From Pseudomonadota bacterium (GTDB lineage: Bacteria; Pseudomonadota; Gammaproteobacteria; Ga0077536): DNA of 64,000 bases. The stretch is taken from positions 691 to 64,690 of the forward strand of contig JAYYZW010000119.1 of NCBI GenBank assembly GCA_036339995.1, written 5' to 3'. Both the position numbers and the translations under genes were made by a program. Below are positions 187-54,622 of this stretch, piece after piece; the stretch's first letter is position 1; the number at the start of each line of letters is the position of its first letter. The notes under the pieces are model-generated. The model was not told where the DNA came from and made no database searches. It saw nothing but the letters and a program-made list of their open reading frames with translations.

Positions 187-1860
187 CTAGAATAAGCCGA
201 CTATCCGCCCGTCGGAATCGACGTCGATTTTTTCCGCTGCAGGCGTACGCGGCAGACCCGGCATCGTCATCATGTTACCCGCGATGGCGATGACGAAACC
301 GGCGCCAGCAGCAACGCGGATCTCGCTGATCTCTACCGTATGGCCGCTCGGCGCACCGCGTACTCCGGGATCGGTCGAGAACGACATCTGAGTTTTCGCT
401 ATGCACACCGGGAAATCACCGTAGACAGCATTGAGTTCCTCGATCTCCCGGCGCAGTTTGGGTGTGGCATAAATATCCGAGGCGCCGTAGATCTTCCTCG
501 ACACCGTGCAGATCTTGTCCCACAGAGGGTCTTTTGCATCGTAGACATAGCGGTGGGCGACACTGTTCGCATCGACGATTTCACTCACTGCCCGGGCCAA
601 ATCCTCGGCGCCCGCGCCGCCTTCGGCCCAGTGTCGCGCGACGACCGCTTTGCCGTCTAGCGAGCGCACCTTGTCGAGGAGCAGAGTAATTTCCGCGTCG
701 CTGTCGTGCGTGAAATGATTGATGCTGACAATGCAGGGCAGTCCATAATGTTGCTTGATGTTGTTCATATGGCGTTCGAGATTCACGCAGCCAGCGTTCA
801 ATGCATCGAGATTTTCATCGTTCAATTGATCCACCGCCATGCCCCCGTGGTACTTGAGCGCGCGAACGGTCGCCACCAGCACCACCGCCCGCGGTTTGAG
901 GCCCGCCATGCGGCACTTGATGTCGATGAACTTCTCGGCCCCCAGATCAGCGCCGAATCCGGCCTCGGTGACGACGTAATCCGCGAGTTTGAGCGCGGTA
1001 CGGGTCGCGATCACCGAATTGCATCCGTGCGCGATGTTCCCGAACGGACCGCCGTGCACTAAGGCCAGGTTGTTCTCGAGCGTCTGTACGATATTCGGGT
1101 TGATCGCGTCTTTTAGTAGCGCCGCCATGGCGCCGTGGGCCTTGAGATCGGCTGCGGTCACGGGCCGTCGGTCGTGGCGTGTATAGGCCACGACGATTCG
1201 CCCGAGGCGGGATTTGAGATCCTCCAGTGAGCTTGCCAGGCAGAATATGGCCATGACTTCGGAAGCAACGGTGATGTCGAATCCGTCTTCGCGTGGAACG
1301 CCGTTAGTGGTGCTGCCGAGAGCGATAACGGTGTTGCGCAGCGCGCGGTCATTCATGTCGACTACGCGTTTGAATTTGATGAGACGCGGATCAATGTCCA
1401 GCGCGTCGCCGTGGTGGATATGGTTGTCGAGCATGGCCGCGAGCAGGTTGTGGGCGGCCCCGATGGCGTGGAAATCGCCGGTAAAGTGCAGATTGATGTC
1501 TTCCATCGGTACCACCTGCGCATAACCGCCGCCGGCGGCCCCGCCCTTGATGCCGAAACAGGGTCCGAGCGAGGGTTCCCGCAGGCACATGATGGTGGTC
1601 TTGCCGATCCGGTTCATGGCGTCGCCGAGACCGACGGTGGTCGTCGTCTTGCCCTCGCCGGCCGGGGTCGGGCTGACTGCGGTAACCAGAATGAGTTTGC
1701 CGTCGGCGGCGGTTTCGAGACTGTGGATGTATTCGAGCGACAGTTTGGCCTTGTAATGACCATAGGGCTCAAGGTGTTCCGGCGCAATGCCGAAGCGCTC
1801 GCGAACGAGATCGACGACGGGCCTTTTGGCCGCCTGTTGAGCGATTTCAATGTCCGACAT
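187..1860 (-). CDS. fhs: formate--tetrahydrofolate ligase
   Basis: 557 aa ORF. Full-length similarity to Fhs, including the typical C-terminal ...IVGLF and a TAG stop. Confidence 0.9.
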
Positions 1861-2025
1861 GGGTTATTCTCGCGATGATTGAGAACGGTTCAGGGTCGCG
1901 CTTGGGTCTCCGAGCAAGTCGGTCAGGGCGGCGCGCGCGAGTTTATCATCAATTCCGAAATCGATTACGCGCACGATCTATAACCGGGCGATTAGTGGAC
2001 GCCAATGGCGCGATGAAGCCTTGAT

Positions 2026-3786: not shown

Positions 3787-6346
<2,560 letters not shown>

Positions 6347-6368
6347 CGGGTTGGGCGCGGAACGATAA

Positions 6369-7664
<1,296 letters not shown>

Positions 7665-12800: not shown

Positions 12801-13784
12801 CTTTGGCTTCGCACCCCGTCCGGTCGCGCCCTCGTCGCGGATTTCGCCGCCGGCGCCGGTCGACGCGCCCGGATAGGGAGATATCGCCGTCGGGTGATTA
12901 TGCGTTTCGACCTTCATCACGATCGACACGTCTTCGGGATGATGCGCATAAATGAGGTTCGCACCGTTCACACAAAACCGCTCTGCGCGATAGCCCCGAC
13001 TGACCGCGGCGTTGTCTCGATAGGCGGACAAGACGTCGTTGGGATGGCGGGCAAAGGTGTTTCGAATCATGTCGAACAGGCTGAGCGGTTCCTCACGTCC
13101 GTCTACCAACCATGATGCGTTGAAGATCTTATGGCGGCAGTGCTCAGAATTGGCCTGCGCGAACATCATCAGTTCGACGTCCGTCGGATCACGTTCGAGT
13201 TCGCGATACCGACCGTCGAGATAATCGATCTCTTCGTCCGCCAGCGCGAGGCCGAGCTCCGTATTGGCGGCTATGAGTGCATCGCGTCCTTTTGCCAGCA
13301 GCGGGACACGGACTAGCTGACCAGGCCGTGCCGCCGAATTGAGCAGATCGAGCTCGGCGCACGATCGCATGACGGTTTCCGTCATGCGATCGTGGAGAAA
13401 CGGCAGCAAGCCTTCGATGCCCTTCCGGTCGAGGCCGGTGACGAACCAGGCGGTCACACGCTCGATACGCTCGAGTCCAATCACCCCGCAATTCACGCAG
13501 ATGTCGGCCGCCTTGCTAGACCAGGGAGATATCGTGCCGATGCGCGGCGTAACCAGAATGTCGGGCTCTGTGGCTGGATTGTCGCCGGCGTCGTCGCGCG
13601 CGCGGGTAAGCCGTTTCAGCAGGTCCCGCTCGGCATTCGTCGCACCGTCGGCGTTGTGGAACCAGGCGGCGAACAAATGCTCCGCGTCGATCGTCTCCAA
13701 GGCCGGCGCTACGTTTACGCAATCGGCCTTGAGTTTTTCGATTCGAAAGGGCGAAAGGGCGGAACCGCCCCGGAGTAACAACAT
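9900..13784 (-). CDS. purL: phosphoribosylformylglycinamidine synthase (single-chain large PurL)
   Basis: 1294 aa. N-terminus [18 protein letters not shown] parallels E. coli PurL. C-terminal glutamine amidotransferase domain present. Confidence 0.95.
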
Positions 13785-13797
13785 TTGATTTCTAACC

Positions 13798-13970
13798 CTT
13801 AGGGAATCTCTGAATAAGTCATGGTGCGTCTGAATTGTTCATAAAATTGTGCAGATCAAGGCACGAATCGCAGCCAATAGCGGGGACTATTGGCAAGGTT
13901 CGTAACGCTGAGCTGCGCGATTTTATGGGCAAGGCAGATGTGCCATGACTTATTCAAAGGTTCCTTAGGG
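13798..13970. repeat. MITE/REP-like palindromic mosaic element, copy 1 (about 173 bp)
   Basis: TIRs CTTAGGGAATCTCTGAATAAGTCATGG ... CCATGACTTATTCAAAGGTTCCTTAGGG. About 90% identical to the reverse complement of the copy at 31678..31847. Central hairpin CCAATAGcggggaCTATTGG. Confidence 0.8.
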
Positions 13971-14825
13971 TATGACTTCCACCTTCACCCAGACGTCGTA
14001 GACGTCGCTACCCTGGCGCCGCGTGCTGTAAAGCGTACCGCTCGTCGAATCGTTGAATGCCTGGGCGGCACCGCCGAATGGTATCCATTCGCCCAGCCGA
14101 CCGCTGACGGTCGTTGACAGGCCGCGTGAGTCGATCAAACCGCCGCCAGAGCGATTGAGGTTCTCGGTAAACGGCGAGATCTCAAGGTTGATCCGGTCGC
14201 CCGCAACACGCGGTAGGACGTAGAAACCTGCACCGGCATTACGATACCTGACGGACCCGAACACAGTAGCGCCATACGGCGTCCACACCACCGAGTGCTG
14301 CGGTATTGGGACGGATTTCCCCGCACTGATGAAAGCTGGCGACCCTTCAATGGCATGCACGAAATGCGTATTGTCGGCATCGTGCACGCCCTGCGTGCTG
14401 AAATTGCGATATTGAACGTGGTTATCTCTATCGCCATAGGTGATGCTCGCGCCCGGCCCACGCGCCGGCCGACCGACCCGGGCTTGAACATCGCCGCCAG
14501 TGATGCGGGCCGACAGTTCGTTTTCGCGAAGTTGCGAGTGCGCATCGATGTCCTGACGCACGGTGATGCGCAGTTGTTTCAGTTTCGCATCGAGCGCCGC
14601 GAGGACGTTCTTGAGATCGGCCAGGTTTTCGGGCGTCGTGCGGATGATCAGCTGGTCGTTCATTCCGGTCACAGTACCGCCTTCGACAACCAATGCCTGG
14701 AGAGTCGGTACAACGTCGTTCACAAGACGATGCTTGAGCGGAATGATCTCCAAGGTCATTTCGGCACTATGCACCGATGGGGCGATCGAGATAAGGGCGA
14801 TTGTTAAGATCAGGATACGGCTCAT
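13965..14825 (-). CDS. secreted hypothetical protein with secretin-N (NolW-like) short domain
   Basis: Start at internal ATG 14825 (MSRILILTIALISIAPSVHSA signal peptide) with a GGAGG RBS. N-terminal domain LEIIPLKHRLVNDVVPTLQALV...LIIRTTPENLADLKNVLAALD resembles the secretin N-terminal domain. No full secretin C-terminal domain. Stop codon TAA lies inside the repeat TIR. Confidence 0.55.
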   Translation of the reverse strand: MSRILILTIALISIAPSVHSAEMTLEIIPLKHRLVNDVVPTLQALVVEGGTVTGMNDQLIIRTTPENLADLKNVLAALDAKLKQLRITVRQDIDAHSQLRENELSARITGGDVQARVGRPARGPGASITYGDRDNHVQYRNFSTQGVHDADNTHFVHAIEGSPAFISAGKSVPIPQHSVVWTPYGATVFGSVRYRNAGAGFYVLPRVAGDRINLEISPFTENLNRSGGGLIDSRGLSTTVSGRLGEWIPFGGAAQAFNDSTSGTLYSTRRQGSDVYDVWVKVEVIP

Positions 14826-15355
14826 ATGTGCAGCCTCCGGAAATTCGTGTCGGGCACGCCACGTTCCCACATTTCCTCGATCCGGTCGACAAGCCCTGCG
14901 GCGATCCGCCTGTCGTTGAAATCCGCCGTCCCTTCGAAGCGAGCGGAAAACTGGCGATGTACGTATCCTGTGTTATCGGCAACGAGGATCGCTTCATTAA
15001 ATTGTTTGTGCTGAGGCGCTGGCGCGCGAATTTCAATGTAACTCGGCAGACGCGAACTCAGTTCCAGCACCCGGTGACCGGTAGAAATGAGCGGTCTGGA
15101 TTCAATGATGAACAGCCTTATCTGCGCAGTTCGGTTCTTCAAGGCCATATTCTTGAGGGCGTCGGCGAAGGCCTCATTATCGTAGATGGCAGGGTCTAGA
15201 TGGCGGCTGACGATGATCAGCGACTGTCTGCATTGCTGGGCCATCATCACACTGATCACGGCGAGCGATGTGTGATCGTCGAACGTCAGCGGCTCGGCCG
15301 TCCCTCCTAGGACGGCGCCTTCATAGCCGACGGCTTCATCGCGGACCTCAGACAT
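14822..15355 (-). CDS. hypothetical cytoplasmic protein
   Basis: 177 aa ORF. 8-nt overlap with the purB 3' end and ATGA overlap with the downstream secretin-N gene. No TM helix. No family recognised. Confidence 0.5.
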   Translation of the reverse strand: MSEVRDEAVGYEGAVLGGTAEPLTFDDHTSLAVISVMMAQQCRQSLIIVSRHLDPAIYDNEAFADALKNMALKNRTAQIRLFIIESRPLISTGHRVLELSSRLPSYIEIRAPAPQHKQFNEAILVADNTGYVHRQFSARFEGTADFNDRRIAAGLVDRIEEMWERGVPDTNFRRLHI

Positions 15356-31677: not shown

Positions 31678-31847
31678 TTTAGGGAGCCCCTAAATAAGTC
31701 ATGGTACATCTGCCTTGCCCGTGAAATCGCGGAGCCTTACGTTACGAACCTTGCCAATAGTCCCCGCTATTGGCAAGGTTCGTGCCTTGATCTGCGCGAT
31801 TTCGTGAACAATTCAGACGCACGATGACTTATTCAGAGGTTCCTTAG
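31678..31847. repeat. MITE/REP-like palindromic mosaic element, copy 2 (about 170 bp)
   Basis: TIR pair ...TAAATAAGTCATGG / CGATGACTTATTCAGAGGTTCCTTAG. Perfect 17-bp central hairpin ACGAACCTTGCCAATAG-tccccg-CTATTGGCAAGGTTCGT. Right end 7 bp from the pyrF ATG. Confidence 0.8.
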
Positions 31848-31853
31848 CTTGCG

Positions 31854-32573
31854 ATGAACAGATCGCTTAAACCGGTGATCGTCGCCCTCGATTTCCCGAA
31901 TCTGGATCTAGCGCTCACACTAGCCGATCGACTCGATCCCGGCGTCTGCCGCGTCAAAATCGGCAGCGAATTATTCACGCGCGCCGGCCCGGGGTCGGTT
32001 CGCGCGCTGATCGAACGCGGCTTTGACGTCTTTCTCGATCTCAAGTTTCATGACATTCCCAACACGGTCGCGGGCGCCTGTCGCGCCGCGGCTGAATTGG
32101 GTTGCTGGATGATGAACGTGCACACTGGAGGCGGTGCCGCCATGATGCAGGCCGCGCGGGAAGCGATTCACTGCGATGATGGCCCACTACTCATCGGCGT
32201 TACGGTTCTGACCAGCATGGGCGACGCGACACTCGACGCGGTCGGCGTTCGACACTCTCCAATGGATCAGGTCTCGCGACTCGCACGGCTGGCGGCTGAG
32301 GCAGGACTCGATGGTGTGGTCTGCTCGCCGATGGAGCTCGCCGACTTGCGCGGGCAACGGGGCTTCGACTTCAAACTCGTGACCCCTGGCATCAGGCCTC
32401 TCGGTGCGGCCCGCGGCGACCAGAAACGGATCGCAACGCCCGCAGAGGCCATCACAGCCGGAGCTGATTACCTGGTCGTCGGCAGACCGCTGACAAGCTC
32501 CGAGCATCCAGAAGAGGTGCTGGCCATGATCAACGCTGAATGCGCCACCGCGGCGGATACCCGCGACCACTGA
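31854..32573 (+). CDS. pyrF: orotidine 5'-phosphate decarboxylase
   Basis: 239 aa with PyrF motifs VALDF and [11 protein letters not shown]. Confidence 0.9.
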
Positions 32574-51651: not shown

Positions 51652-53223
51652 TTGAATATGAATGGCGCTCACGCCTTGCTAGATGCGCTGGTCGACGCCG
51701 GCGTCAATGTCTGTTTCGCCAACCCGGGCACCTCGGAGATGCATCTGGTTTCGGCCATCGGCAAAAGCGACGCCATGCGCCCGGTCCTCTGCCTGTTCGA
51801 AGGCGTCGTTTCAGGGGCGGCCGATGGCTACGCGCGCATGAGCGGAAAACCTGCGATCACCTTGCTGCATCTCGGCCCCGGATTCTCCAACAGCATGGCG
51901 AATCTGCACAACGCGCGCCGCGCGCATTCGCCGCTCGTCAACATCATCGGCGATCACGCTACCTGGCATCACAAGTACGACGCGCCGTTGACATCCGACG
52001 TACCTGCGCATGCCCGCATCCATTCGCATTGGCTCAAGGTAACGGAGTCCGCCGAGGACCTGGCCCTGGCCGGAGCCGAGGCGGTACAGGCGTCGATGGA
52101 AGGTGCGGGCAAGATCTCGACCCTCATCGTGCCGGCAAATCATGCCTGGGAGCCGGCGACGAAATCCTATGATCGCCTGCCGCCCCCGGAATTGCCGGCC
52201 GTTATTGACGCGCATGTCGATGCAGCCGCGAAGGCTTTGAAGAATGGCAGGCGAACGGCGCTGCTACTCGGCGGCCACGCCCTGCGCGATCCGTCCCTAG
52301 CGTCCGCCGGACGGATTGCGGCAGCCACCGGCGCGGCGCTGTTGTGCGAAACCTTTTCGGCCCGACTTGAGCGAGGCGCCGGGCGTGTTCCCTTGCAGCG
52401 CATTCCGTATTTTGCCGAACTGGCCAGCGAATATCTGAAGGAATTCGAACAGATGATCCTGATCGGCGCACAACGACCGGTCGCTTTTTTCGCGTATCCG
52501 GACGTCGCGAGCCTGCTCGTGACCGAAACCTGCGAAATGATCGAACTGGCCGGTGTCGATGACGACATCTCGGCCTCACTCGCCGCACTTGCAGACGCAC
52601 TCGATGCGCCGGCGAACGTCGCCGTGCAGCAACGCGTCGCATCTGTCGTGCCCGATGGCGAGCTGACTCCCGCTGCCGTCGGCGACGTCATCAACGCTCT
52701 GCTGCCCGAGCAGACGATTCTGGTTGACGAAGGGATTACCTGCGGACTGGAACTGTTCACCCGCACCGTGGGCGCGGCGCCGCACGACTGGCTCTCGATA
52801 ACAGGCGGGTCGATCGGCCATGGCCTGCCGGTCAGTTTGGGCGCGAGTATCGCCTGCCCGCAGCGCAAAGTCGTTGCGTTTCAGGCGGACGGCAGCGCTA
52901 TGTATACGGTACAGGCCCTGTGGAGCATGATGCGTGAAGAGACGGACGTTACGGTGGTGTTGATGAACAACAGCAGCTACGCCATTCTCAACATTGAGCT
53001 CACGCGACTCAAGACAGGCGAGCCCACGCCGAAGACGCTATCCATGCTCGACCTGTCAAACCCGGACATCGATTGGGTGAGCATCGCCCGGGGCATGCAA
53101 ATGCCCGCGAACCGCGCGGCGACGGTCGCAGAATTCCATCAGCAGTTTGGCGAAGCCATGCAAACGCAGGGGCCGTGCCTGATCGAGGTGAAGCTTGCGC
53201 AGCGACCGGGAGCTACTGCGTGA
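51652..53223 (+). CDS. thiamine pyrophosphate-dependent enzyme, benzoylformate decarboxylase / acetolactate synthase-like
   Basis: 523 aa. N-terminal PYR domain (FANPGTSEMH). C-terminal PP domain with a GDGS-type motif (FQADGSAMY...NNSSY). Confidence 0.8.
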   Translation: MNMNGAHALLDALVDAGVNVCFANPGTSEMHLVSAIGKSDAMRPVLCLFEGVVSGAADGYARMSGKPAITLLHLGPGFSNSMANLHNARRAHSPLVNIIGDHATWHHKYDAPLTSDVPAHARIHSHWLKVTESAEDLALAGAEAVQASMEGAGKISTLIVPANHAWEPATKSYDRLPPPELPAVIDAHVDAAAKALKNGRRTALLLGGHALRDPSLASAGRIAAATGAALLCETFSARLERGAGRVPLQRIPYFAELASEYLKEFEQMILIGAQRPVAFFAYPDVASLLVTETCEMIELAGVDDDISASLAALADALDAPANVAVQQRVASVVPDGELTPAAVGDVINALLPEQTILVDEGITCGLELFTRTVGAAPHDWLSITGGSIGHGLPVSLGASIACPQRKVVAFQADGSAMYTVQALWSMMREETDVTVVLMNNSSYAILNIELTRLKTGEPTPKTLSMLDLSNPDIDWVSIARGMQMPANRAATVAEFHQQFGEAMQTQGPCLIEVKLAQRPGATA

Positions 53224-53224
53224 G

Positions 53225-53392
53225 CTTAGGGAACCTCTGAATAAGTTACGGCACATCTGCCTTGCCCGTGAAATTGCGGAGCCTTACGTTACGAACCTTG
53301 CCAATAGTCCTCGCTATTGCCTGCGGTTCGTGCCTCGATCTGCACTGTTCATGAACAATTCAGACGCACCATGACTTATTCAGAGGTTCCTC
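53225..53392. repeat. MITE/REP-like palindromic mosaic element, copy 3 (about 168 bp)
   Basis: Same orientation as copy 2. TIRs CTTAGGGAACCTCTGAATAAGTTACGG / CCATGACTTATTCAGAGGTTCCTCA. Degenerate central hairpin. Begins 1 nt after the TPP-enzyme TGA. Its right terminus contains the TGA stop of the lipoprotein gene. Confidence 0.8.
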
Positions 53393-54110
53393 AGATTCCA
53401 GATTCCTGAGCGGCGATCCCTATTGCGTTCGTCAACAAGACCGACAAGGAATCGAATATCGTCGTGCGATGCGATTCTCTAATTGCCTGCACGCCAGAGC
53501 CGGTTTCGTATCGAGGCCGCCACACCGACTCCGTGAGCGGAGCGACCTGCCGTCCGCCCGCTCTGCCGACAACGAATTGCCTTTTCACGTCAATGGCTTC
53601 GATTGCGATGGCGGCATAGGCGAATACGCCCGTATCGAAGGCTTTCTGGAAGCCGTAACCGCGAATGTTCTGGTTGGTATGGGTGACGTAGTCTTGCGCG
53701 ATGTCCGGATAGACTACCACCACCATATCGAGGCCTTTTGCGGCGCCCGCCTGGTAAACGCGTTCGTGAATCTCACCGGTATCGCGGTAACCCCATTTGG
53801 ATTCGGCAATACCAAACGAGCTGTCGTCCCGGCGGATCCGAATCACCTCGAACCCTTTCCTGCGCAACCGGGCGCCGACTTTTTCATAGACGAGGGCGTC
53901 AGCGTCCCAGCCTTCCAGCACGGTGCTGGAGAACTTGCTTTCCATGGCTGATATCGACAGGTAACTTATGTAGGGTTGCCGGTTGACCAGCGACAGCACG
54001 CCGACCTTGGTGATCCTCGCCGCATGCTCCGCGGTCATGCGTGATTGGCTGGTATTCAGCAGGCAGCCCGTCAGCGCGGCGCAGCACAGATAGATCAAAT
54101 TTTTGATCAC
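53391..54110 (-). CDS. hypothetical lipoprotein
   Basis: GTG start at 54110 gives MIKNLIYLCCAALTGCLLN (lipobox LTGC). About 239 aa. The longer TTG-initiated ORF was rejected. Confidence 0.5.
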   Translation of the reverse strand: MIKNLIYLCCAALTGCLLNTSQSRMTAEHAARITKVGVLSLVNRQPYISYLSISAMESKFSSTVLEGWDADALVYEKVGARLRRKGFEVIRIRRDDSSFGIAESKWGYRDTGEIHERVYQAGAAKGLDMVVVVYPDIAQDYVTHTNQNIRGYGFQKAFDTGVFAYAAIAIEAIDVKRQFVVGRAGGRQVAPLTESVWRPRYETGSGVQAIRESHRTTIFDSLSVLLTNAIGIAAQESGI

Positions 54111-54127
54111 GTTCGATGCCGAAATCG

Positions 54128-54622
54128 TCAAGCCTCGTCCGCATCCCGCGTCCAGCGAAAATCGCAGTGATCCGCACCTTCCATCATTGTCTGCGTGCGT
54201 TCGAGTTTGAGATCGGAGCCTATGCCGGCAGTCATGGGCGGGTCGATGCCGCAAACCATGAGCCGCCCGAACTCCCGATCACCGAGTTTGCGAAATAGCT
54301 CCGCATACCGACAGCGCCGTACATTGAACGCCATCACGGTATCGGACTCCTCCACCGGCTCGATCTCGATGGCGTCGCCCGCGGTAAACATCGGTACGGC
54401 CTTACGCAGCTTTTCGAGGGAATTCGAGCCCTCGTTGCGGCCGATCGAGCGACCGAATTCCGTGGCGAATTCATTGACTGCTACGGAGAGCAGTTCGCGC
54501 GCCCGGTCCGGGCCGATTTCGTCTTTAAGGCGCCGGTATAAGGGCAGCAGTATTTCAGCCTGAATTTTCACTCGCTCGATGTAGGGCAGCGGATCTGAAA
54601 TCGTGTCAGCTTTCTGGTTCAT
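54128..54622 (-). CDS. L-2-amino-thiazoline-4-carboxylic acid hydrolase-like family protein
   Basis: 164 aa. Cys-containing motifs (CRYAELF, GADHCDFRW) recalled from the ATC-hydrolase family. Family assignment tentative. Confidence 0.45.
   Translation of the reverse strand: MNQKADTISDPLPYIERVKIQAEILLPLYRRLKDEIGPDRARELLSVAVNEFATEFGRSIGRNEGSNSLEKLRKAVPMFTAGDAIEIEPVEESDTVMAFNVRRCRYAELFRKLGDREFGRLMVCGIDPPMTAGIGSDLKLERTQTMMEGADHCDFRWTRDADEA

Follow-up and report, generated by a model that had tools for sequence, protein, structure and literature searches.

Correia elements of Neisseria and ERIC/YPAL elements of enterobacteria are MITEs, i.e., non-autonomous transposons with terminal inverted repeats (TIRs) and target-site duplications, comparable to the repeat described here, and RNase cleavage and stability changes have been documented at the RNA level for Correia and ERIC elements. 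REPs are 20- to 40-nt GC-rich stem-loops that lack the combination of TIRs and target-site duplications and owe their mobility to RAYT (TnpA_REP) enzymes. Both REP and SPRITE sequences occur preferentially at the ends of convergent genes (PMC3184786). The Coxiella burnetii elements QMITE1 and QMITE2 are MITEs that overlap the last bases of genes (PMC5896051), and the target-site duplications of IS5 obey the motif YTAR (PMC5009759).

Here, we analyzed a single 161-nt repeat that fills the gap between two convergent genes, one for a TPP-dependent enzyme (plus strand) and one for a lipoprotein (minus strand), in a 64,000-nt stretch of gammaproteobacterial DNA (hereafter, the window). Its long hairpin in 3' UTRs and its overlap with gene ends resemble those of QMITE1 and QMITE2; moreover, the C-terminal residues added by the latter (EnhC, Dugway strain) can be compared with a 531-aa variant of the TPP enzyme and with protein ends reading ...ADVP* at other loci of the family, while the transposase family and the target site are different. 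Like REP/BIME and SPRITE sequences, which can influence mRNA stability or termination, the repeat is extragenic, palindromic, and located at gene 3' ends, but it differs from REP/BIME in its 161-nt length, its GC content (50% in a window of 60%), and its TIRs and duplications. A REP/BIME classification was rejected on the grounds of size, composition, architecture, and positional bias. The repeat reveals no new kind of system.

Gene ends and element junctions

The open reading frame of the TPP-enzyme gene was called at 51652..53223 (+), ending in TGA at 53221-53223. Orthologues begin MNGA..., which identifies the ATG at 51658 as the true start and gives a gene at 51658..53223 (+) for an acetolactate-synthase-like large subunit of 521 aa, on whose orthologues Pfam TPP_enzyme_N and TPP_enzyme_C were found. 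On the other strand, the lipoprotein frame was called at 53391..54254 (-), ending in TCA (TGA on the minus strand) at 53391-53393, with the gene itself at 53391..54131 (246 aa; lipobox LTGC; C-terminus ...AAQESGI*). Both stop codons named by an earlier sequence-only reading, as well as its observation that one repeat alone parts the two genes, were borne out. That reading had also let the element begin directly after the TPP-enzyme TGA. Similarity between copies, however, begins at 53226 rather than 53224; there, a family alignment of 79 copies places the left target-site duplication TTAG (53226..53229), and the element proper, copy 3 of the window, runs from TIR to TIR at 53230..53390 (+; 161 nt; TIRs at 53230-53246 and 53374-53390). 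Two relic bases, GC (53224-53225), lie between the TGA and the duplication; completed by the first T of TTAG, they make up a relic codon, and the next triplet, 53227-53229, is a TAG in the same frame (GCT TAG, 53224..53229, +; TAG being codon 524). On the right side, where GGTTCCTCA lies at 53385-53393, the lipoprotein TGA had been taken as part of the element's terminus; the TIR ends at 53390, and the stop is outside it because 53391-53394 is the duplicated target, here TCAG with one mismatch to TTAG. Copy 3 is not an assembly artefact, since an independent, 99% identical assembly (L080) has this element too, with identical junctions.

The in-frame TAG in the left duplication coincides with the native stop position of TPP-enzyme orthologues, most of which (among 120 listed) are 523 aa long. 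About one-third of these 120 end in [RK]R (11 LRR, 10 LKR, 7 IKR, 6 TRR, and others), and the gene ends in GCA AC(G/C) ACG CGA CGC TAG in L004 and L077 and CGG CGT TAG in L008, while the window enzyme and P0012 end in ...GATA, 2 aa short of 523. The lipoprotein C-terminus matches all 11 orthologues (42 to 97% identity), which share the ending ...E[SA]G[ILF] and the stop position, and, judged by this alignment, is native. At this locus, the idea of a native C-terminus cut short or exchanged by the insertion is thus mostly not borne out: the lipoprotein end is native, and the TPP enzyme is two residues short owing to a TGA two codons before the native TAG. The idea does apply to a sister lineage (L001-L003), which retains only a 16-nt TIR scar, and this remnant now encodes part of a new C-terminal tail of the TPP enzyme (531-aa protein; 8-residue extension).

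It is highly improbable that the gene ends were simply mis-called, with the real C-termini running into or past the element and the wedging being an artefact of ORF calling. The TPP-enzyme frame of the sister lineage does read through the scar, and at other copies ORFs extend 15 to 35 nt into the element, but the lipoprotein stop keeps its position in orthologues down to 42% identity, TPP-enzyme orthologues stop no more than two residues from the window's stop, and the junctions recur in the independent assembly. Orthologous C-termini that are longer and continue into unrelated sequence, the sign of mis-annotated boundaries, were seen for none of the 11 lipoproteins, and the TPP-enzyme ends differ by just two residues.

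Element anatomy, IS5 affinity, and family

The 17-nt terminal repeat GGAACCTCTGAATAAGT has six matches in the window (≤3 mismatches), compared with 0.05 expected by chance, and these delimit three copies of the element (13799-13968, 31679-31847, and 53226-53394, duplications included), with 161 to 162 nt between the duplications. The TIRs of copy 3 are perfect over 17 nt and extend imperfectly to ∼30 nt. No transposase ORF occurs in the element, which is crossed by trivial ORFs only. Copy 1 (13799..13968, -) is flanked by CTAA duplications, of which that at 13965-13968 holds the TAA stop of a 301-aa gene (13965..14870), and its other end lies 14 nt upstream of the purL ATG (13784); an orthologue of this copy was found in a related MAG (L038:5346-5515). 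Copy 2 (31679..31847, +), with TTAG duplications, lies between a lapB-like gene (end, 31634) and pyrF (ATG, 31854), 6 nt upstream of the pyrF start. With good confidence, we regard the element as a MITE, that is, a non-autonomous transposon defined by its TIRs and target-site duplications.

The TIR (GGAACCTCTGAATAAG) resembles the two ends of Escherichia coli IS5 (GGAAGGTGCGAATAAG and GGAAGGTGCGAACAAG), with 12 of 16 bases identical to both, and is almost identical to the left terminus of an insertion sequence of the IS5 family carried by the Achromobacter plasmid pA81 (GGAACCTCTGAACAAGTC; 17 of 18 bases), the transposase of which matches NCBIfam NF033581, as does E. coli InsH. The element's ends also resemble the inverted-repeat pattern of the IS5 group, GGAAGGTGCGAA[TC]AAG, and like IS5-group MITEs the element is short, non-coding, and multi-copy, with 4-bp YTAR duplications. 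It differs from IS5-derived MITEs in that the host data searched yielded no full-length insertion sequence as its cognate: tblastn with E. coli InsH as the query gave no match in the window or in ∼600 kb of loci, and neither the window nor ∼600 kb of the related MAG held an autonomous IS5-type element with matching ends. We therefore infer the mobilizing transposase, most likely an IS5-group DDE transposase acting in trans. The internal 100 nt showed no relation to searchable annotated elements.

A collection-wide genome scan placed 67 of 68 matches in one gammaproteobacterial MAG, CAXXLL01, which carries 76 full-length copies, and the family appears to be restricted to one uncultured gammaproteobacterial lineage among species-representative genomes. 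A Spirochaetales match (L012) was rejected as a chance hit because it lies inside a coding gene and lacks the GGAACC terminus. Identical 4-nt direct repeats flank 41 of 79 copies, the flanks being non-identical in the other 38; YTAR occurs on at least one side of 68 copies and as an identical pair in 34, the predominant duplications across the 79-copy alignment being CTAA/CTAA (22), TTAG/TTAG (8), and TTAA/TTAA (4). Partial family matches comprised two solo ends (L074 and L076), which were rejected as ends of insertion sequences and represent scars, and a 56-nt minimal copy (L087). Two further short matches (L091 and L094) proved to be other small elements of other organisms.

Hairpin, gene context, and the terminator question

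The transcript of copy 3 is predicted to form a long hairpin on either strand (-70.9 and -81.8 kcal/mol; z-scores of -7.3 and -8.2), and the hairpin behind the sequence-only reading is in this sense real. Its proposed role as a bidirectional terminator, as for REP/BIME elements, found no such backing. A consensus scan of both strands of all three copies detected no terminator-like site (a stem followed by a T-run), and a consensus promoter scan at the same copies detected no promoter. The element does not have the form of a compact GC-rich stem-loop with an A-tract upstream and a T-tract downstream (flanks: plus strand, TCAGATTCCAG; minus strand, CTAAGCTCACG), and a comparison of the entire window with Rfam at gathering thresholds gave no match. 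According to crude gene calls made with a longest-ORF heuristic, 75 copies of the family lie in 14 convergent, 48 tandem, and 13 divergent gaps, versus 89, 318, and 92 in the background of intergenic gaps; the convergent share (19% versus 18%) is thus not enriched, and the bias of REP and SPRITE is not shared. Considering the missing T-run, Rfam match, and convergent excess, together with the TIR-plus-duplication architecture of a transposon, we find no support for a dedicated role as a terminator, although the predicted hairpin may have some incidental effect on transcript 3' ends.

It could still be argued that the element was co-opted to terminate transcription in both directions or to stabilize mRNA 3' ends for a convergent pair lacking both a spacer and a terminator, by analogy with REP/BIME, ERIC, or Correia elements, a proposal that we consider improbable. 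REP and SPRITE are indeed known at convergent gene ends (PMC3184786), the hairpin has very high stability on either strand, and element-free relatives have just 0 to 36 nt between the two genes, so that an insulating hairpin could be useful. Moreover, the antisense RNA is the more stable one in every copy (79 of 79; mean, -87.0 versus -66.6 kcal/mol, a difference of ∼20 kcal/mol), and 34 of the 48 copies in tandem gaps are oriented such that the mRNA carries the weaker hairpin, suggesting that RNA structure matters; given this orientation bias (34 to 14), the family is not perfectly neutral to transcription. The scans described above nevertheless argue against recruitment, as does the gene context, in which divergent, promoter-side gaps are equally common. 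Copies 1 and 2, in tight tandem gaps 14 and 6 nt before purL and pyrF, must be transcribed through, and the sister lineage lost the element without regaining a spacer. RNAalifold on the 79 copies returned a weak consensus (-6.4 kcal/mol) with almost no compensatory changes, the copies varying too little for covariation to back a selected structure.

Doubtful to a similar degree is the suggestion that the strand asymmetry and orientation bias reflect selection, that the family acts on RNA as an orientation-dependent transcription barrier or processing site, and that it was acquired here as an asymmetric insulator. If so, the insulator would act strongly on the lipoprotein transcript but leak on that of the TPP enzyme, and antisense read-through would be limited. 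At this locus, we prefer to view the element as selfish and near-neutral, and in annotation such repeats should not be read as terminators or as a sign of mis-called genes.

Occupancy among relatives and proposed insertion history

At the orthologous site, the element is present in the window, L080, and L007 (98.5% identical), and absent from L008, L004, and L077, in which TAG and TCA lie 36 or 5 nt apart or share a single CTAG. The nearest element-free relative has just 74% lipoprotein identity, and the genomes compared included no true empty site. On these alignments, the pattern of presence and absence, together with the scar in L001-L003, is evidence of element mobility.

We consider it quite likely that the MITE inserted at a YTAR on abutting stop codons, with the duplication leaving a stop to each gene. 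Before insertion, the two convergent genes would already have abutted, the TAG of the TPP-enzyme gene (codon 524) forming positions 2 to 4 of an original TTAG and the lipoprotein stop on the other strand most probably forming positions 1 to 3 of the same TTAG. An IS5-type transposase would then have inserted the MITE at this 4-bp YTAR and duplicated it, so that each gene received a separate copy of the site and no free base remained. Two later changes would complete the present arrangement, namely, a TGA arising two codons upstream in the TPP-enzyme gene, with loss of the terminal RR, and the conversion of the right duplication from TTAG to TCAG (lipoprotein stop TAA to TGA). As both 3' UTRs now contain the long hairpin, it may have the incidental effect of impeding read-through or 3' exonucleases, the lipoprotein transcript being the more affected.

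The right-hand TCAG is not a YTAR, and three outgroups carry TCA, or TGC derived from TCA, at the lipoprotein stop (exactly TCAG in L008); thus, a shared TTAG requires one additional change from T to C, unless the site has another history. In the latter, which we hold to be the less probable course yet one of some weight, the same MITE entered a TTAG at the TPP-enzyme stop, and the short spacer (5 to 36 nt, the outgroup range) and the right duplication were later lost in a small deletion, so that the TIR now abuts a native TCAG whose likeness to TTAG is coincidental. This would need one event fewer, and deletions around the palindromic element do occur, as illustrated by the scar in L001, the 56-nt copy, and the solo ends. 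However, the end points of the deletion would have to coincide exactly with the final TIR base on one side and the initial base of the stop codon on the other, and a 3-of-4 match to the left duplication is expected by chance in only ∼5% of cases, while single mismatches are common in the family, with non-identical duplications at 38 of 79 copies.

Insertion at a YTAR on abutting stops offers a worked example of why IS5-type MITEs often adjoin gene ends. YTAR reads TAA or TAG on both strands, and hence, at a genomic GC content of 60%, gene stop codons make up many of the YTAR sites where insertion is tolerated; insertion there would be harmless and without cost to the host, because the duplication regenerates the stop and leaves one on each side of the element. 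Across the family, the duplication is the stop codon of a flanking gene in 21 of 75 copies, compared with 15% of available YTAR sites (P = 0.003; crude longest-ORF gene calls). Once in place, such elements can remodel C-termini, as seen in the two-residue truncation of the TPP enzyme in the window, its scar-encoded extension of eight residues in the sister lineage, and the ...ADVP* ends elsewhere.

Convergent stop codons and the repeat copy between them

A single repeat copy fills the gap between the stop codons of a TPP-enzyme gene (ORF 51652..53223, plus strand; true start at ATG 51658, where orthologues begin MNGA...) and a convergent lipoprotein gene (ORF 53391..54254, minus strand). The ORF ends agreed with the sequence-only reading in placing the TPP stop (TGA) at 53221-53223 and the lipoprotein stop (TCA, that is, TGA on the minus strand) at 53391-53393. 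That reading also had the element begin 1 nt after the first TGA; the close adjacency was borne out, but similarity between copies begins at 53226 rather than 53224, and two bases (GC) separate the left duplication from the TGA. Repeat matching within the window delimited copy 3, including its duplications, at 53226-53394, and its outermost four bases are target-site duplications, with TTAG on the left (53226-53229) and TCAG on the right (53391-53394). Since these bases are not inverted repeat, the lipoprotein stop, previously assigned to the right terminus of the element, does sit at the copy edge but inside the duplication. The arrangement is real, because an independent metagenome assembly (L080), which matches at 99% identity across 6.5 kb, has this element in place with the same junctions.

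A repeat family with IS5-like ends

The 17-nt terminal sequence GGAACCTCTGAATAAGT had six matches in the window at up to 3 mismatches, compared with 0.05 expected by chance, thereby delimiting three copies, including copy 1 (13799-13968, inverted, with terminal-repeat matches and a CTAA duplication) and copy 2 (31679-31847, not inverted, with terminal-repeat matches). When one genome per bacterial or archaeal species was scanned with a degenerate 22-nt pattern derived from the extended terminal repeat, 67 of the 68 matching stretches fell in a single MAG, CAXXLL01, labelled Gammaproteobacteria bacterium. The lone match in a Spirochaetales MAG was rejected as chance, being inside a gene and without an element terminus. 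CAXXLL01 is ∼91% identical to the window across the overlap and contains an orthologue of window copy 1; BLAST recovered 76 full-length copies of ∼162 nt each from its loci.

Alignment of 79 copies and their flanks (the window plus loci L009-L076) revealed flanking 4-nt direct repeats, namely, CTAA/CTAA (22 copies), TTAG/TTAG (8 copies), and TTAA/TTAA (4 copies), with many pairs mismatching at the first position alone. YTAR, the documented IS5 target duplication (PMC5009759), occurred on at least one side in 68/79 copies. The skew of CTAA over TTAG duplications (22 versus 8, counted in the element's own orientation) could stem from either selection or insertion-orientation bias. The terminal repeat shares 12 of 16 bases with both ends of Escherichia coli IS5 and 17 of 18 with the left end (TTAA, then GGAACCTCTGAACAAGTCC) of an insertion sequence on the Achromobacter xylosoxidans plasmid pA81, whose annotated IS5-family transposase matches NCBIfam NF033581, like E. 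coli InsH. The GC content of the element is 47 to 51% (60% for the window), and neither a meaningful ORF nor an Rfam match was found in it. The YTAR duplications, IS5-like ends, low GC content, and absence of a meaningful ORF identify the family as an IS5-group MITE; searches of the window and about 600 kb of loci turned up no autonomous parent. Few-base overlaps with gene 3' ends, element-encoded C-terminal extensions, and long hairpins in 3' untranslated regions are shared with bacterial MITEs, as exemplified by QMITE1/QMITE2 of Coxiella (PMC5896051). The family, which belongs to an uncultured lineage of gammaproteobacteria, is a previously undescribed IS5-group MITE, and all of its features are already known for bacterial MITEs.

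Several related sequences were also observed. A 56-nt minimal derivative (L087:204-263) consists only of two 27-nt terminal repeats, forming a near-perfect palindrome with CTAA duplications. In a different, lower-GC organism, another MITE (L091:9673-9886, ∼204 nt) has unrelated internal sequence but shares the terminal repeat and is flanked by CTAA duplications. A signalling gene of 696 aa lying upstream has its TAA stop in the left CTAA. Several MITE families may thus be served by a single lineage of IS5-type transposases. Near MITE copies in CAXXLL01, a fragment of an IS256-like (mutator-type) transposase (L074:4428-5162) is unrelated to the IS5-type ends.

Native gene ends and the likely history of the insertion

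At this locus, comparison with orthologues spoke against the earlier proposal that insertion had truncated or replaced a native C terminus. All 11 lipoprotein orthologues (42 to 97% identity) end in ...E[SA]G[ILF] at the position of the window's ...AAQESGI-stop, so both the C terminus and the stop position are native. Most of the 120 listed TPP orthologues have 523 aa, with an [RK]R ending in about a third, whereas the window protein and P0012, a relative at 99%, have 521 aa and end in ...GATA. The window gene closes with GGA GCT ACT GCG TGA GCT TAG, followed by GGAACC, and the TAG within the left duplication forms codon 524 of the same reading frame, aligning with ...GCA ACG ACG CGA CGC TAG in L004 and L077 and ...CGG CGT TAG in L008. 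Because this is exactly the native stop position, the TPP enzyme was not truncated by the insertion itself; its shortening, due to the TGA two codons upstream, is consistent with a CGA-to-TGA change.

The window carries the element, as do L080 (99%) and L007 (98.5%; the contig end falls inside the repeat); it is absent, with synteny kept, from three other loci. These read TAG, 36 nt, TCA in L008 (74% lipoprotein identity) and TAG, 5 nt, TCA in L004 (57%). The L077 TPP enzyme shares 78% identity with that of the window, and the 4-nt overlap of the two genes in this relative is one palindromic CTAG (L077:4069-4072) that ends both, a natural example at the same locus of two stops in one YTAR. The L077 lipoprotein homologue has three extra residues, appears split into two ORFs (129 and 63 aa), and may be a pseudogene.

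With the element and one duplication removed, the window sequence becomes ...GCG (C/T)GA GCT TAG ATT CCA GAT TCC..., and insertion into a TTAG serving both stops is the most likely history. Read on the plus strand, such a site would have given the TPP gene its TAG, and on the minus strand, it would have given the lipoprotein gene a TAA; a staggered cut of the IS5 type and its repair would then have doubled the site, each gene retaining a stop with nothing left over. The earlier impression of "no spare base" would thus arise because the duplicated TTAG leaves each gene exactly one stop. The TCAG common to the window, L080, L007, and L001 would come from a subsequent T-to-C change in the right duplication (TAA to TGA). 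Alternatively, a short spacer may still have separated the genes when the element entered the TPP TTAG, with the right duplication and spacer lost later; this takes one step fewer but demands a very precise deletion, and we regard it as improbable.

All that remains in L001-L003, where the lipoprotein is 90% identical, is CTTATTCAGAGGTTCC plus TCAG, corresponding to the 16-nt right terminal repeat and duplication (L001:4723-4760; also in L002 and L003). This scar makes the insertion older than the split of the window and L001 lineages, the latter having undergone a ∼155-nt deletion afterwards. The TPP ORF there crosses the scar as ...GAIAYSEVPQIPDS-stop, giving a 531-aa protein with a new tail, AYSEVPQIPDS, and a 19-nt overlap with the lipoprotein gene. 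Copy 3 is a neat but readily explained case of a MITE landing in stop codons. Elsewhere, solo-end remnants of the MITE at L076:405-445 and L074:6212-6245 give neighbouring genes (ORFs 425..1954 and 6231..6785, respectively, both on the minus strand) their last residues and stop. Both proteins end in ...ADVP-stop, and the coding sequence of this ending, GCAGATGTGCCATGA, is the terminal repeat in reverse complement.

Gene context, hairpins, and the terminator question

With genes called by a longest-ORF heuristic, the duplication formed a neighbouring gene's stop codon in 21/75 copies, versus 15% expected from all YTAR sites, non-coding or overlapping a stop, in the same loci (P = 0.003). In window copy 1, for instance, gene 13965..14870 has its TAA stop in the CTAA, and several further genes end at a TGA within the terminal repeat, 15 nt in. 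The copies lay in 48 tandem, 14 convergent, and 13 divergent gaps, a distribution indistinguishable from the intergenic background (318, 89, and 92). Copy 1 ends 14 nt ahead of the purL ATG (region 13784-13968) and copy 2 ends 6 nt ahead of the pyrF ATG (region 31679-31856), in gaps of ∼14 and ∼50 nt, respectively, before insertion. No sigma-70-like promoter was detected at either copy, and transcription of purL and pyrF must either cross the element or start inside it.

Free-energy prediction yielded a strong hairpin for copy 3, at −70.9 kcal/mol for plus-strand RNA (z = −7.3) and −81.8 kcal/mol for the minus strand (z = −8.2). A consensus terminator scan found no stem-then-T-run site on either strand, and the 79 copies are too alike for covariation to reveal selected structure. 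Given these results, the absence of a context bias, and transcription through copies 1 and 2, a dedicated REP-like role, suggested earlier as a REP/BIME-like bidirectional terminator, is unsupported; the element may still act incidentally on the TPP and lipoprotein transcripts at their 3' ends. REP and SPRITE repeats (PMC3184786) also differ from this MITE in architecture and positional bias. Two asymmetries leave an RNA-level role slightly open. The RNA of the strand designated antisense was the more stable in 79/79 copies (mean, −87.0 versus −66.6 kcal/mol), and 34 of the 48 copies in tandem gaps (34 versus 14; P = 0.006) put the weaker hairpin in the mRNA, by either selection or insertion-orientation bias.
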